From Syntrophomonadaceae bacterium (GTDB lineage Bacteria > Bacillota > Dethiobacteria > DTU022 > PWGO01), in assembly GCA_003550565.1 (NCBI GenBank), contig PUKQ01000188.1, positions 1-46,607 on the forward strand: a DNA stretch of 46,607 nt, written 5' to 3'. The translations under genes were made by a program, and so were the position numbers. This document shows, one piece after another, positions 3,998 to 7,318 of this stretch. Numbering within the stretch: the stretch's first letter is position 1; the number at the start of each line of letters is the position of its first letter. Under the pieces are notes generated by a model, which ran no database searches, was not told the DNA's origin, and saw only the letters and a program-made list of their open reading frames with translations.

Positions 3998-6900
3998 TTA
4001 AGAATACTGGGTTCTGTTAATTACATGCCATTTCATATCGTCGGAAAGATTGTGAAAGTATTCACAGTAACCGGCTATGCGGATAAGAAGGTCCGGGTAT
4101 TTTTCCGGGTTTTCGTATGCATCCAGCAGCATTTCCCTGTTTACTACATTAGGCTGCAGTTGCATCCCTCCACTTTTAAAAAATGTTTTCAATATGTTCA
4201 TCAGGTTTTTCTTGCCTTCTTCTCCCGGAAATAAGGAAGAATCGATAGTAAGGGTTGCCGTGGTGCCGTTTTCGGCATGTTCGGCAAAGTCGATACCGGC
4301 TATGGAATTGAGCGCCGATAAAAGGTCTGACTGTTCTTTTCCGTAGTGGGGGGTAATGCTGTTGGCAAAAGGAACGCCTTTTAACCTTCCCGAAGGCAGT
4401 GCCGGTGAATTTTTGCCGAACATATTGGCCAGGTTTAAAGCGTAATATCCGGCTGAATACCGACCGTTTCGCGGATCACTTCCCGCTGAATCCAGCGCAT
4501 TGTTATACATCTCCAGAACTTTGTTTACCCACTGGGTAGCCTTGTTGGAGTGATCGTCCCCGAATTTGGGAACTGCCCGCAAGGCTTCTCTTATTTGCTG
4601 GTTTTCTTCACCCTCGAAGTTGTCATCTATGGCCTTAATAACGTCGTTGACGGAGTAGAGATTGTTTTTGAAAACAACTTCCTCAATAGCGTGGAAGGAA
4701 TCTGCCACATCTGTAACAGCTATGGCCTGGATGCCGCTGCTGTTGATGGTGGTTCCTCCTTCGAGAATATCCTTGCCGCTTTCAATGCACCCTCTGTAAA
4801 GAGCAGAGCTCAGGGGGGTAGGAAAGTTTTCCCGGAGTGATTCTTCCATTTTATGATGATCGGCCAGAATTGATTTTGCCAAATGGTTTAAACGTTCCTG
4901 GAAGCGTTCAAGCAACTCATCCATGCTGGAAGGCGGCTGGTAATTATAAATCCCTTTTTCCATGTTGTTTTTTTCGCGGAGTTTGGTAGATCTCTGGTTG
5001 ACCAGGCGGTTAATACTGGCCCTTTCCCTGGAAACATGATGGGCGAAATTCGTGGCGAGTTTCAGTCTGGATTCCCGGCGCTCAAAATTCCACAAATCAT
5101 GGGTTTGGCCTTTGAGAGCTTGCAAAAAAGGCATGGCCAGGTTTATGTTAGAGCAGTCGGTATTGCCAAAATGATCGTCGGATGCCACCGGTTCCACACA
5201 TCCTACAATGGAATAATTTCTAGCATCCTCAATGGTAGTATGATAATGCCTGAGTAATGACTCTATGTATACTTCATCACAGAATATTTGGGGAAGGGGG
5301 CATCCGCTGAGATAAACCTCAGCAAGCCTTTCCAGGTATTTGTCGGGGCTGTTTTCATGGATACGGGCTGCCGGGTCGGCTGACCGGGGTTGTAGCTCGC
5401 AAATATCTATGAGCATGTAAGTGATATCGTTGGTGGCGTCTGCACCGTTTTTGTCCACTCCGCCGAAAGTATAAGCCTGGTCGGTGGATATAGTTTCAAA
5501 AAGCCGGAAAAGCTCCGGGAAATTGTCCCCGTTGTTGACCAAAACAAGTTCGTCCATTTTGAGAATGAATAAGCTGAGAAGCTCTTTGGCTTTTTCATAG
5601 GTGATTCTTCCTTCTTGAATGTCTTCTTTATAATACGGATATAGTATTTGATCAATCCGCCCAAAAGATATGGCATTTTCGTAAGATTCCAGGCAAAGGG
5701 CTATATGCAAAAACAGCATGCTTTGCAGGGCTTCATGAAAGGTGCGGGCGGGATAACGGGGGACATGTTCGCATATCTCGGCTAATTCTTCCAGTTCCTG
5801 GCGCCTCTGAGAATCGCTTTCTTCTGTGCTTAAAGCCCACAGATGCTCGGCATATTTTTGGCCGAACTGTTCTAGGCCTTCAAGGGCAATAATAGCGCCG
5901 TCATAAAAATTGTGAGTGTTTTCGGGCATCTCTTTTTTCTTTTCTTCTATTTCTTCAATCATGCCGGAAGTTCCCAAACTCAAGATACGGTCGAAGTTTA
6001 CAATATAGTGACCGATGGCCAGAATATTAAAATTCATGCCGATATTCCATTCCGTTGTCCGGGCTGCCAGTAAACCCAATTGGGCCAGATCCGGCCACAA
6101 TTTGCTAACCTGGCTATGGTGGATCCAGTAAGGGGCAACTTCTTTGAGGAAAGTAAAGTAGTCTTTAAGTGAGCTCTGAAATGCCACCGGCTTCCGATTG
6201 TTGGCTTTTAATACCTGCATTACGCTGCCGGCGGATATATACTCAGGCCAAGTTCTTCCGCCCACCCTGCTGGAAGTAAAGTTGCCTACGAGCAATTCCC
6301 GGGGATAAATTTTGGTTTCTTTGTTCTTTAATACATGGGCGAGGCATTCTGCCCTGTGAATTGGCCCGGGTTTGGCAAATTCTCCATCTTTATAAGGTTT
6401 TTTAAAGCCATAATTCTTGTAATACTCTGTGCGCAGCCTGGCGTCCTCGATGCAAACGGCAGGTTTGGTATTTTTGATAGTTTCGTCTATTTCTTTAACG
6501 CGTTCGGTAAATTCGGCTTTGGGTGGAGGGGAATCTATATAGGTGCTTTCTGCTTTGATACCGTACTTTTGGAAAAGCTTGATGCCTTCTTCCAAGGATG
6601 CCTGGCTTTGCTCCATGGTAATATTTAGTGGTTCATATTCCAGGCCGAGGCGTACGGCTTTATCTTCGTATAAATTATGGTATTTGAGTAATTCAATGGA
6701 ATTATAACCGATTGATTTTAGAAATTCAGAAGTGGCGCGGATATTGTTTTCCCCATCAGTATATCCAGGGATCATTACCATCCGGAATTTGACTTCAGCA
6801 TCCAAATCTAACAGCTTTCTGATGTTGTCGTGGATCAATGAAGGATCCCGTTTGGTGTATTGCATATGGAGTTCTTCATTGCCAACTACCTTTAAATCTA

Positions 6901-7318
6901 CAAGAAAGAGATCGATGTAAGGGGCGGCTTCGTTGATAACTTCCCAGGGAGCGTGAAATGAAGATTCTACAGCAACTTTTATATTTTCCTGTTTTAACGC
7001 CTTCAATAGATTGAGAAGGTTTTCAGAGTCCTGGAGAAAAGGTTCTCCACCACTAAGAGTTACTCCCCCGTTGGAGGAAAAATAATAATTTTTATCCCGC
7101 AGGACCACATCCAGCATATCTTCTATTGTATAGTTGTTTTGAGAGTTGGTTTGCTTCTTAAACGCCAGACCTTCTGGATTTTGACACCATAAACACCTTA
7201 AATTGCATCCTTGGAAGAAAATTGTGGTCCTAATTCCCGGGCCATCGTGTACACAAGTACGCTGGATATCAAAGACTTGCAAACTTTTGGCTATTGTTGT
7301 CAAATTCATCACCGTCAT
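3998..7318 (-). CDS. Fusion protein: glycyl-radical activating enzyme (radical SAM) plus PFL2/dehydratase-family glycyl radical enzyme
   Basis: aa ~1-255: HDGPGIRTTIFFQGCNLRCLWCQNPEG (CX3CX2C at C38/C42/C45), GGVTLSGGEP, DLK, IPGYTD, YH. aa ~270-1106: ISFGRIDQ, TFGG...DATND, Cys loop SIVGCVEP (C707), PKFGDD, LPSGR, Gly loop LLIRIAGYC (G1083). The true start may be TTG at 7303 after a GGTGA RBS. Confidence 0.92.
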   Translation of the reverse strand: MTVMNLTTIAKSLQVFDIQRTCVHDGPGIRTTIFFQGCNLRCLWCQNPEGLAFKKQTNSQNNYTIEDMLDVVLRDKNYYFSSNGGVTLSGGEPFLQDSENLLNLLKALKQENIKVAVESSFHAPWEVINEAAPYIDLFLVDLKVVGNEELHMQYTKRDPSLIHDNIRKLLDLDAEVKFRMVMIPGYTDGENNIRATSEFLKSIGYNSIELLKYHNLYEDKAVRLGLEYEPLNITMEQSQASLEEGIKLFQKYGIKAESTYIDSPPPKAEFTERVKEIDETIKNTKPAVCIEDARLRTEYYKNYGFKKPYKDGEFAKPGPIHRAECLAHVLKNKETKIYPRELLVGNFTSSRVGGRTWPEYISAGSVMQVLKANNRKPVAFQSSLKDYFTFLKEVAPYWIHHSQVSKLWPDLAQLGLLAARTTEWNIGMNFNILAIGHYIVNFDRILSLGTSGMIEEIEEKKKEMPENTHNFYDGAIIALEGLEQFGQKYAEHLWALSTEESDSQRRQELEELAEICEHVPRYPARTFHEALQSMLFLHIALCLESYENAISFGRIDQILYPYYKEDIQEGRITYEKAKELLSLFILKMDELVLVNNGDNFPELFRLFETISTDQAYTFGGVDKNGADATNDITYMLIDICELQPRSADPAARIHENSPDKYLERLAEVYLSGCPLPQIFCDEVYIESLLRHYHTTIEDARNYSIVGCVEPVASDDHFGNTDCSNINLAMPFLQALKGQTHDLWNFERRESRLKLATNFAHHVSRERASINRLVNQRSTKLREKNNMEKGIYNYQPPSSMDELLERFQERLNHLAKSILADHHKMEESLRENFPTPLSSALYRGCIESGKDILEGGTTINSSGIQAIAVTDVADSFHAIEEVVFKNNLYSVNDVIKAIDDNFEGEENQQIREALRAVPKFGDDHSNKATQWVNKVLEMYNNALDSAGSDPRNGRYSAGYYALNLANMFGKNSPALPSGRLKGVPFANSITPHYGKEQSDLLSALNSIAGIDFAEHAENGTTATLTIDSSLFPGEEGKKNLMNILKTFFKSGGMQLQPNVVNREMLLDAYENPEKYPDLLIRIAGYCEYFHNLSDDMKWHVINRTQYS

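Follow-up and report, generated by a model that had tools for sequence, protein, structure and literature searches.

Glycyl radical enzymes (GREs) are dimers, and their activases (AEs) normally act on them catalytically and transiently. The pyruvate formate-lyase (PFL) PflB has an adjacent catalytic Cys-Cys pair. The residues C418 and C419 are named for PFL in PMC12338860. Fusion of a GRE to its activase has a published precedent in eukaryotic NrdD-NrdG proteins, where a class III ribonucleotide reductase and its activase share one frame; in the account given there, the fusion was proposed to help fix a transferred operon (Lundin et al. 2010, PMC3019208). Here, we describe a large, conserved family of AE-GRE fusions that is undescribed in the searched literature. 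A sequence-only reading of the present locus had stated that no characterised GRE-activase fusion was known. For PFL-type AE-GRE fusions, we likewise found no description in the searched literature; among GREs as a whole, fused NrdD-NrdG genes had been published in 2010 (PMC3019208).

The gene lies on the minus strand of the window, the 46,607-nucleotide stretch of DNA analysed here. It is a single unbroken open reading frame (ORF) of 1106 codons, running from an ATG at 7318 to a stop codon at 3998-4000, while the plus strand across the same interval contains many stops (Table 1). No ATG, GTG or TTG occurs in frame between residues 243 and 329, the junction region that was scanned. Thus, the sequence-only reading was right about the single 1106-residue frame and about the lack of a start at the junction. 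The terminator that it assigned to the gene is also supported: the terminator-like hairpins that follow the stop codon have a free energy of -39 kcal/mol (z -7.2), and none of 200 shuffled sequences folds equally well. Upstream, in the 197-nt divergent intergenic region, there is a candidate promoter at 7387-7358, which is a consensus match alone, the scan as a whole not rising above shuffles.

The claim that no transporter genes occur at the locus fails, as an ABC transporter (76-3894, plus strand) adjoins the fusion gene in convergent orientation. This transporter is TupABC-like (tungstate) with a ModE-like regulator, and is therefore probably unrelated to the fusion gene. The second terminator-like hairpin also faces this convergent operon. 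As the same reading had proposed, microcompartment genes are lacking: no BMC shell gene was found in the gene's own genome, which is 96% complete. The stand-alone state of the gene is likewise the usual one across the family, where we found no conserved gene neighbour. This fits a portable one-gene module, and we infer from these sequence comparisons that the gene is transferred from lineage to lineage on its own.

Table 1. Features of the fusion gene and its flanks (window coordinates).
Feature	Position	Strand	Evidence
Whole ORF (P0001), AE-linker-GRE fusion, 1106 aa + stop	3998..7318	-	ORF, Pfam domains, independent contig
Radical-SAM activase module, residues 15-258, short form without ferredoxin-like insert	6545..7276	-	Pfam, TIGR profiles, 3c8f match, AE HMM 15-258
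C38-X3-C42-X2-C45, radical-SAM [4Fe-4S] cluster motif	7184..7207	-	Sequence motif
Loop residues 46-63, site of the 8-Cys ferredoxin insert in long-form activases	7130..7183	-	Profile gap, Cys count
Inter-module linker, residues 257-269, ESTYIDSPPPKAE	6512..6550	-	Alignment
GRE module, residues 270-1106, PFL2/dehydratase-like class, complete	4001..6511	-	Pfam, profiles, PDB, Foldseek
Cys loop G706-C707-V708-E709	5192..5203	-	Motif; aligned to C433-V-E435 of 1r8w
Family-specific insertion, residues 744-795, mostly helical, rich in basic residues	4934..5089	-	Pfam/PDB alignment break
Glycyl radical motif R1080-I-A-G1083-Y1084	4067..4081	-	Motif
Two terminator-like hairpins 3' of the stop codon; 17-bp stem and following U run in the second	3892..3968	-	Folding
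Promoter-like site TTGAAG-18-TATAAT	7358..7387	-	Sigma-70-like consensus match 10/12

All the motifs that had been named for the two modules (C38/C42/C45, DGPG, GGEP, GCVE and RIAG1083Y) are present. The activase half matches Fer4_12 (residues 25-118) and Radical_SAM (33-190) in Pfam, and carries D25-G-P-G28 and G90-G-E-P93 in addition to the cluster motif. CX3CX2C is found in 115 of 121 proteins, the other six being gene calls that start inside or just after it. In an alignment of 96 sequences (57-91% identity to the query), C38, C42, C45, D25, G26, G28, G90, G91 and P93 are invariant throughout. The module scores 216.6 bits against TIGR02494 (PFLE_PFLC), above the cut-off of 174.35. Its match to this long-form profile is in two pieces, skipping profile positions from about 44 to 101. 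The PflA profile TIGR02493 is matched in one piece at 154 bits, under its cut-off of 232, and PflA itself (PDB 3c8f) aligns with residues 23-255 (E 2e-28). The segment from CX3CX2C to GGE has 44 residues and no Cys, compared with 85-97 residues and 7-9 Cys in long forms. The ferredoxin-like insert that is usual in the TIGR02494 subfamily, with two auxiliary [4Fe-4S] sites and about eight Cys, was not found in the AE, so that the earlier description of a short-form activase is upheld. We read loop 46-63, where residues 55-60 have a pLDDT below 50, as the deletion scar of this insert.

The GRE half matches PFL-like in Pfam at 271-738 and in a second stretch, and Gly_radical at 985-1088, with scores (PF02901, 434 bits; PF01228, 81 bits) that place it in the PFL-like GRE superfamily. 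An RIAGY-type motif occurs in 120 of the 121 proteins, the exception being partial, and G706, C707, V708, E709, R1080, A1082, G1083 and Y1084 are invariant among the 96 sequences. Since the catalytic motif residues of each half are invariant in this alignment, both modules are under selection. The family-specific insertion is 52 residues long in 78 of the 96 sequences and is absent from other GREs; the model places helices at 747-763 and 767-787.

The best PDB sequence matches of the GRE are 2f3o and 1r8w, with a Foldseek TM of 0.93 against 2f3o. Aligned to 1r8w, residues H437, C707, E709, D721 and Y959 correspond to H164, C433, E435, D447 and Y640, which we take to be functional residues in glycerol dehydratase. 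C707 is presumably the thiyl-radical Cys, and E709 the general-base Glu typical of eliminases. The eliminase set of glycerol dehydratase, Cys-x-Glu with His and Asp, is thus present (C707, E709, H437 and D721). The enzyme most probably catalyses a 1,2-elimination. Three other positions that we assume to belong to the glycerol dehydratase active site are substituted (S282 by A549, H281 by N548 and Y339 by D613). The substrate class can be assigned only weakly, because TIGR01774 (PFL2/glycerol dehydratase) matches residues 271-1104 at 492 bits, under its cut-off of 678, and none of the characterised equivalogs (HypD, CutC, sulfopropanediol dehydratase, IslA, HPAD, indoleacetate decarboxylase and BssA) rises above its own. 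The best of them, HypD, reaches 352 bits against 1100, with the others far below their cut-offs. Membership in the fused class III ribonucleotide reductases (NrdDG) was rejected: NrdG models reach just 49-57 bits where their cut-offs are 126-131, and the best 25 of the 38 matching NCBIfam families include no NrdD model.

The gene is not a one-off. We find at least 120 clusters at 90% identity, together with fused clades that have a long AE (P0125, P0127 and L050). A search for Radical_SAM, PFL-like and Gly_radical domains in one chain, as had been suggested, is well answered by these homologues. The 120 that are listed (57-100% identity) are all 1047-1146 aa long and all carry PF02901 and PF01228; 119 carry PF04055. 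Labelled members are mostly Asgard archaea, and bacterial clades are nested among the Asgard-labelled sequences. Among 400 other genomes sampled from the same phylum as our locus, there were no matches at E <= 1e-100.

In a GRE tree of 145 sequences, the short-fusion clade has a support of 1.0; long-AE fusions branch next to it, followed by split pairs with the AE upstream. An AE tree of 94 sequences gives the same branching order (supports 1.0, 0.88 and 0.909). Both trees thus show a history that ran from a split AE-then-GRE pair with a long AE to a long-AE fusion and then to a short-AE fusion. On the same branching, the ferredoxin insert of roughly 50 residues and 8 cysteines was lost after the fusion, in the short-fusion clade. 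Three short database proteins stop at the linker or slightly upstream of it, with no obviously frameshifted tail: P0281 (249 aa), P0287 (233 aa) and P0241 (264 aa). Their contigs range from 84 kb to 2.4 Mb, and they could be genuine split forms.

We consider it likely that the gene encodes a natural single-chain GRE and activase: a self-activated 1,2-eliminase, descended from a split pair and kept fused for co-inheritance and co-expression. The N-terminal module (15-258) would bind one [4Fe-4S] cluster through C38, C42 and C45, plus SAM. The C-terminal module (270-1106) would form a 10-stranded-barrel GRE, with Gly1083 as radical store and Cys707/Glu709 as catalytic pair. An external donor would reduce the cluster, after which the activase module would cleave SAM and the 5'-deoxyadenosyl radical would abstract hydrogen from the C-alpha of Gly1083, either within its own chain or across the dimer. 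The glycyl radical would then generate a thiyl radical at Cys707, which would initiate a 1,2-elimination, of the dehydratase or lyase kind, from a small polar substrate. Self-activation may proceed in cis or in trans. The expectation that the glycyl radical would form with SAM only is wrong in principle, since a radical SAM [4Fe-4S] cluster has to be reduced beforehand, for instance with flavodoxin or ferredoxin as the external donor. Given that activases normally act catalytically and transiently, what activity would gain from a 1:1 tether is not obvious; the fusion is probably maintained by guaranteed co-inheritance and 1:1 co-expression.

Two rival accounts concern the reality of the fusion and the class of the enzyme. 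A sequencing or assembly error might have merged neighbouring genes, or a stop codon might have been lost recently, leaving a fusion with no function. In the nearest split relatives (L049, L051, L054, L055 and L065), the AE gene directly precedes the GRE gene, with a gap of 3-6 nt or an overlap, so a single mutation could join the modules. Yet among 32 related loci at >=52% identity, all 27 that cover the junction have AE and GRE in frame (the remaining five lie at a contig end and begin within the GRE). The claim would have been undone had all close homologues been split, and they are not. A 97%-identical copy in a different assembly is likewise in a single frame, and checking the junction against independent data gave the same answer: a contig of 10,099 nt from an independent run spans 3900-7425 with 137 substitutions; its only two gaps, at 3936 and 3996, fall beyond the ORF, which contains no indel. 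Furthermore, every listed homologue is in the full-length size class, and the linker is indeed short, as first described: of 96 family members, 93 have a linker of 13 residues, two of 12 and one of 15, while its sequence varies. The fusion is genuine, and an assembly artefact is ruled out; the joined-genes account as a whole keeps a negligible probability. It is scarcely more probable that the enzyme is a true pyruvate (2-oxoacid) formate-lyase, as the source names "formate C-acetyltransferase" and "pyruvate formate lyase family protein" and the Pfam PFL-like match would have it. With a single catalytic Cys in its GCVE loop, and without the adjacent Cys-Cys of PflB, the enzyme is no such lyase. 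The TIGR01255 score is 122 bits, where the cut-off is 994, and the alignment to 1h16 is limited to the C-terminal part.

The role of the tethered AE leaves more room for debate. It might mainly activate other GREs of the cell in trans, as a general activase tied to one of its clients, or work solely across the dimer and never on its own chain, GREs being dimers. The gene's own genome has seven PFL-like GRE loci and just two stand-alone full activases, each encoded next to the GRE it belongs to, so the fused AE might also, or instead, serve other GREs. This count is uncertain, because the metagenome-assembled genome (MAG) consists of 280 contigs with 6.4% contamination: activases may be missed and GREs may be foreign. 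Congruence between the AE and GRE trees indicates that the two modules co-evolved as a pair, and the gene spreads alone into very different lineages. The linker length is fixed, too. With 13 residues in nearly all members and a linker pLDDT of about 79-90 in an AlphaFold model of high overall confidence (pLDDT 89.9, pTM 0.91), the inter-module geometry looks fixed in sequence and model alike. We therefore regard these two alternatives as unlikely, though together they are the most credible of the competing accounts. That the radical-SAM module is no longer an activase, having become a structural or regulatory domain or taken up a different radical-SAM reaction, is highly improbable. The auxiliary-cluster insert is absent here and present in all the nearest stand-alone relatives; against this, the cluster Cys, DGxG and GGEP motifs are invariant, the score exceeds the curated activase cut-off of TIGR02494, and E. 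coli PflA, which aligns over residues 23-255, is also insert-free.

A self-activating fusion would have several uses. We know of no structure of a full GRE-activase complex, and the only activation-complex entry among the PDB matches is PflA with a peptide (3cb8). A PFL-AE complex was modelled by docking in 2014 (PMC4034769). With its fixed-length linker, the fusion is a candidate for cryo-EM or crystallography of the activation complex, and a clean cis/trans complementation test is possible. A single gene that brings both enzyme and activator is also convenient for transferring radical chemistry to new hosts. The series from split-long to fused-long to fused-short bears on the role of the auxiliary clusters in GRE activases. 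A more tentative proposal, which we think has some chance of being correct but is rather doubtful, is that permanent tethering made the auxiliary Fe-S ferredoxin domain dispensable, and that the GRE catalyses an elimination not yet described, with a cationic or strongly polar substrate. The enzyme would then be characteristic of Asgard archaea, in which it now passes for "PFL". Invariant E547, N548 and D613 occupy the Gly, His and Tyr positions of the diol dehydratases. If this is true, the ferredoxin domain of two-protein systems would recognise or dock the GRE and would not be obligatory for electron transfer. Among the best matches, many Asgard-archaeal genes bear the name "pyruvate formate lyase family" without having the Cys-Cys pair of PFL, and metabolic reconstructions that count such genes as formate-producing lyases may need checking.

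The GRE of the fusion is nearest to the two-gene PFL2-type enzymes that have a long-form activase, namely B12-independent glycerol dehydratase (1r8w), 1,2-propanediol dehydratase (5i2a and 9rco) and A. fulgidus PFL2 (2f3o), whose fold it shares at a Foldseek TM of 0.90-0.93. Both have GCVE at the Cys loop, RxAGY at the Gly loop and the same His/Asp/Tyr residues (H437, D721 and Y959), and their activases, like the fused AE, belong to the TIGR02494 family. In contrast, the fusion is one chain with the activase first, its AE has no 8-Cys ferredoxin insert, and its GRE carries the 52-residue insertion (744-795), differs at A549, N548 and D613, and is only 24-29% identical. E. coli PflA (3c8f and 3cb8) resembles the fused AE in being short, single-cluster and insert-free, but it is a separate protein acting on PflB, whereas the fused AE descends, by its tree, from long-form activases. 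The NrdD-NrdG fusions, as reported at the sequence level, differ in their GRE class (NrdD), in an opposite order if the name gives it (NrdD before NrdG), and in their restriction to eukaryotes (PMC3019208). The sister long-activase fusions P0125 (1095 aa), P0127 (1136 aa) and L050 (a 1075-aa frame) have the same AE-then-GRE order in one chain and are the nearest sisters in both trees. At 37-38% identity to the query, they retain the ferredoxin insert, with its 8 Cys and Pfam Fer4 hits.

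A single chain carries an activase module (residues 15-258) and a glycyl radical enzyme (GRE) module (residues 270-1106), and both are intact and conserved. The plus strand of 3998-7318, opposite the gene, is stop-rich throughout. All motifs named in the sequence-only reading are present: C38/C42/C45, DGPG (residues 25-28), and GGEP (90-93) in the activase, and GC707VE709 and RIAG1083Y in the GRE. That reading had also proposed that the junction lacks a start codon, and in-frame ATG, GTG, and TTG are indeed all missing across residues 243-329. Its suggestion of a dedicated terminator is supported by two hairpins 3′ of the stop codon, the second with a 17-bp stem and a U run (free energy of the hairpins, -39 kcal/mol; z, -7.2; 0 of 200 shuffles fold equally well). 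The N-terminal part scores 216.6 bits against TIGR02494, the NCBIfam GRE-activase family (cut-off, 174.35), in two pieces that jump the profile section with the ferredoxin-like insert, and a DNA-level search agrees. The PflA model TIGR02493 matches in a single piece (residues 20-249).

Features of the fusion gene, its surroundings in the window, and related loci (L-numbers)
Feature	Position	Strand or orientation	Remarks
Fusion ORF	7318 to 3998	minus	1106 codons, ATG start, TAA end
Fer4_12	residues 25-118		Pfam
Radical_SAM	residues 33-190		Pfam
PFL-like	residues 271-738 + second stretch		Pfam
Gly_radical	residues 985-1088		Pfam
TupABC-like tungstate ABC transporter operon + ModE-like regulator	76-3894	plus, convergent with fusion gene	
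SRAP gene	7516-8163	divergent from fusion gene	
LeuA-like gene	8191-9846		
DUF2229/HGD-D protein + acyl-CoA dehydratase activase	10311-13492	plus	728 aa and 345 aa
DUF2229/HGD-D pair, L001	244-3425		
DUF2229/HGD-D pair, L052	5407-7641		
GntR/FCD regulator, L027	7199-7978		
GntR/FCD regulator, L037	700-1413		
GntR/FCD regulator, L047	7148-7858		
Second GRE gene, L024	1-1983	minus	cut by contig end
Extended GRE, L005 (contig C2 of the window's own genome)	868-3894	plus	second paralogue

The fusion could be read as an artefact or as a singular oddity. A word-index search with the protein returned 709 relatives, the best 120 of which are 1047-1146 amino acids long throughout and 57-100% identical to it. 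All 120 have PF02901 and PF01228, and 119 have PF04055. With the query included, the cluster motif occurs in 115 of 121 proteins, the other six being gene calls that start inside or just past it; GCVE occurs in all 121, and R(I/V)AGY is missing from just one, which is a partial protein. We scanned metagenome contigs, which gave 80 loci, and ran activase and GRE HMMs, built from an alignment of 96 family proteins, on all frames of these and of L001, a locus from another assembly titled uncultured Syntrophomonadaceae bacterium. Thirty-two loci have at least 52% identity. The junction is covered in 27 of these, and all 27 encode the two modules in a single frame. The remaining five start within the GRE, where the contig ends. 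L001, which is 97% identical, likewise has one frame. Contigs of four runs were also aligned to the gene. The junction, which the sequence-only reading had taken as genuine, is intact in an independent run, where a 10,099-nt contig covers 3900-7425 with an ORF free of gaps; this contig differs from the window by 137 substitutions and two 1-nt gaps (3936 and 3996), both beyond the ORF. Homologue lengths, the 27 one-frame loci, and the independent contig rule out an artefact. The singular-oddity reading is wrong, and the family is real, large, and uncharacterised.

Split members were sought by inspecting the 25 most similar of 120 listed short proteins. Sixteen extend beyond residue 270 into the GRE and are truncated fusions, while nine stop within the activase or linker. 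Among these nine, five have unrelated tails of 5-50 residues and look frameshifted (P0282, P0285, P0286, P0292, and P0314), and one (P0275) is marked partial by its source. The last three stop at or just short of the linker: P0281, which has 249 aa and 11 member sequences and comes from an 84-kb contig, along with P0287 (233 aa) and P0241 (264 aa). These could be genuine split variants. Many short database “activases” with 50-65% identity derive from the fused gene by truncation or frameshift and end in unrelated tails (the five proteins with such tails, P0207, and others), and they could mislead a domain-architecture census.

Across the 96 aligned sequences, which are 57-91% identical to the query, invariant residues are found in the activase (D25, G26, G28, C38, C42, C45, G90, G91, and P93) and in the GRE (H437, S551, D613, G706, C707, V708, E709, D721, Y959, R1080, A1082, G1083, and Y1084). 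The linker, counted from residue 256 to the invariant F270, varies in sequence but has a near-constant length (13 residues in 93 sequences, 12 in two, and 15 in one). Such constancy would be unexpected for a floppy tether; thus, the activase module probably sits in a defined position. An AlphaFold2 model built on the same alignment has a mean pLDDT of 89.9 and a pTM of 0.91, with pLDDT of ~79-90 across the linker and low confidence only at residues 1-10 and 55-60. For modules of ~260 and ~840 residues, this pTM suggests that the two are confidently placed relative to each other in the model, and it supports a docked activase indirectly at most.

By sequence, the best solved relatives of the GRE module are Archaeoglobus fulgidus PFL2 (2f3o, 364 bits), glycerol dehydratase (1r8w), CutC, and propanediol dehydratase. 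The fold ranking likewise places 2f3o first (TM 0.93), followed by propanediol and glycerol dehydratases. All curated equivalog models score far under their cut-offs (HypD, 352 versus 1100; CutC, 307 versus 1050), and the PFL2-3 subfamily model reaches 492 against a cut-off of 678. Identity as a pyruvate formate-lyase was rejected (TIGR01255, 122 versus 994), and the Cys loop has a single Cys followed by Val-Glu. This single-Cys GCVE loop is also found in the archaeal members, despite their database name of “pyruvate formate lyase family protein.”

The fold and catalytic residues are those of the eliminase class. Residue equivalences were counted via a HMMER alignment to 1r8w, at positions that we take to line the glycerol dehydratase active site. 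Five are conserved (1r8w H164, C433, E435, D447, and Y640, corresponding to H437, C707, E709, D721, and Y959), and three differ (H281, S282, and Y339, corresponding to N548, A549, and D613). Conservation of the Cys-x-Glu, His, and Asp residues argues for a 1,2-eliminase, by homology at 24-29% identity. E547, N548, and D613, which are invariant, polar or acidic, and changed, argue in turn that the substrate is neither glycerol nor propanediol. In addition, residues 744-795 form a family-specific insertion that solved GREs lack; it is 52 residues long in 78 of the 96 sequences and helical by prediction.

We propose that an external donor would reduce the activase cluster, after which the activase module would cleave SAM and take a hydrogen from Gly1083, whether in that chain or in the other subunit of a dimer. 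Elimination dependent on Cys707 and Glu709 would then follow. The fusion may be favoured because its parts stay together in transfer and its stoichiometry is set. The window's own genome, a MAG of 2.65 Mb in 280 contigs (96.5% complete, 6.4% contamination), has seven PFL-like GRE loci (contigs C261, C2, C87, C224, C188, C225, and C173), some of which may be foreign, given the contamination. In addition to the fused activase, it has two stand-alone full activases, both long-form, on C188 and C87, each adjoining its own GRE. GREs thus outnumber stand-alone activases, leaving room for a fused activase that acts in trans. No BMC shell gene was found in this genome.

The sequence-only reading described the gene as an orphan with no transporter. 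The orphan part stands, in that the family has no conserved neighbour throughout; the other part does not, as a TupABC-like transporter adjoins the gene. A 382-aa protein preceding this operon combines an HTH of the ModE-like type with a TupA-like binding domain and may be a tungstate-sensing regulator. We clustered the flank ORFs of the 32 family loci and the window and checked 14 loci by hand. Conserved neighbours were rejected as a substrate clue, none being common to the whole family, and at many loci the fused gene has genes of the opposite strand on both sides. The DUF2229/HGD-D protein and acyl-CoA dehydratase activase are shared by just three loci (the window, L001, and L052); in L052, whose GRE is 58% identical, the pair is just 324 nt away and divergent. 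GntR/FCD regulators, which often sense carboxylates, immediately precede the fused gene in the same orientation at 3 of the 14 hand-checked loci. Both the regulator and the DUF2229/HGD-D pair are weak hints of a substrate. L024 has an ordinary GRE gene in addition to the fused one; it is located upstream in divergent orientation and scores 269 bits with the GRE HMM.

A sample of 400 further genomes from the phylum of the window's genome yielded no match at E ≤ 1e-100, and the genome contig scan found one close relative only, L001. Sequencing runs that contain the stretch or a close relative have the labels salt lake, soda lake, and freshwater sediment, and none of the listed holders is an RNA run. 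Taxon labels, taken from source names, are known for 24 of the 96 aligned proteins. Most of these labelled members are from Asgard archaea, with labels including Promethearchaeota/Lokiarchaeota, Sigynarchaeota, and Hodarchaeota; Firmicutes, Eubacteriales, Smithella, Syntrophaceae, and Spirochaetae also occur. Outside the 96, the partial protein P0013 is labelled Dethiobacteria. In the midpoint-rooted family tree, Asgard-labelled sequences occupy most deep branches, and both the window's clade and another bacterial clade branch from within them. This nesting loosely suggests that the gene has been transferred between domains, on labels that are few and bins that can be wrong. Asgard papers mention 2-oxoacid-formate lyases and pfl, which may or may not correspond to the fused genes.

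Searching all 1.84 billion 50%-identity cluster representatives with HMMER returned one full-length short-fusion representative, that is, a fusion without the ferredoxin insert (P0122, 1113 aa), with other long forms ranked directly after it. In P0125 (1095 aa) and P0127 (1136 aa), which are also activase-GRE fusions, the activase retains a Fer4 dicluster insert (Pfam); L050 is a third fusion with a long activase. A GRE tree (FastTree LG+gamma, midpoint root) was built from 145 sequences, after 28 of 173 were dropped for covering fewer than 700 HMM positions. The short-fusion family is monophyletic (support 1.0), and its sole “plain” member, P0123, is a fragment starting at query residue 216. 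Its sister (0.994) comprises P0127 and P0126, the latter a fragment whose match begins inside the activase. Next (0.961) come P0125 and L050, grouped with two split forms, L054 and P0132, and thereafter split pairs whose activase gene immediately precedes the GRE gene (L049, L051, L055, and L065). The activase tree (94 sequences, insert columns taken out) has the short-fusion clade (1.0), then three long fusions (0.88), then split partners (0.909); the sole “alone” member of its short-fusion clade, P0314, is a frameshifted fragment. The two trees have the same branching order, and the two modules share one evolutionary history.

From the cluster motif to GGE, long forms have 85-97 residues and 7-9 Cys, against 40-44 residues and 0-1 Cys in the short-fusion family. 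In the nearest split relatives, the activase and GRE frames are 3-6 nt apart or overlapping. We infer that a split operon, activase then GRE, underwent gene fusion, followed by loss of the auxiliary-cluster domain. The low-confidence model loop at residues 55-60 coincides with the place of the lost insert.

Two further kinds of extended GRE were observed. One group, of ~940-1040 aa, has an N-terminal extension of ~160-225 residues that is not an activase (L005, P0142, P0147, P0151, P0168, P0176, P0179, P0197, P0234, and P0256). SCP2 matches this extension in P0142 (31.4 bits, over the cut-off) and weakly in P0151 (18.2 bits), and no family does in the others; the GRE may thereby have gained a domain that binds lipids or hydrophobes. 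P0228 (1060 aa) and P0240 (1022 aa) have a C-terminal extension of ~200-240 residues past Gly_radical, with no Pfam match.

In the full-text-searchable literature, excluding subscription-only papers and supplementary files, we found no description of a PFL-type activase-GRE fusion. It is unmentioned in the accessible text of PMC9850924, PMC3019208, PMC4390871, PMC6325248, PMC8163825, PMC4034769, PMC7478625, bioRxiv 10.1101/726976, PMC8072921, and PMC11237513. The words fused, fusion, tethered, “single polypeptide,” and “same polypeptide” are absent from a 2026 GRE review (PMC13450708). The ESM Atlas has further clusters that pair PFL-like and Gly_radical with Radical_SAM or Fer4_12, and activase-GRE fusion is thus recurrent in sequence databases. 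One Atlas cluster (PFL-like, 100%; Gly_radical, 100%; Fer4_12, 98%) has 56 members, is represented by a 1133-aa protein named “formate C-acetyltransferase,” and is 75% eukaryotic, with Bacillariophyta the commonest label. It may represent an independent activase-GRE fusion in diatoms. The sole case that we found in print, in the accessible portions of the papers concerned, is the eukaryotic NrdD-NrdG fusion (PMC3019208, PMC4390871).
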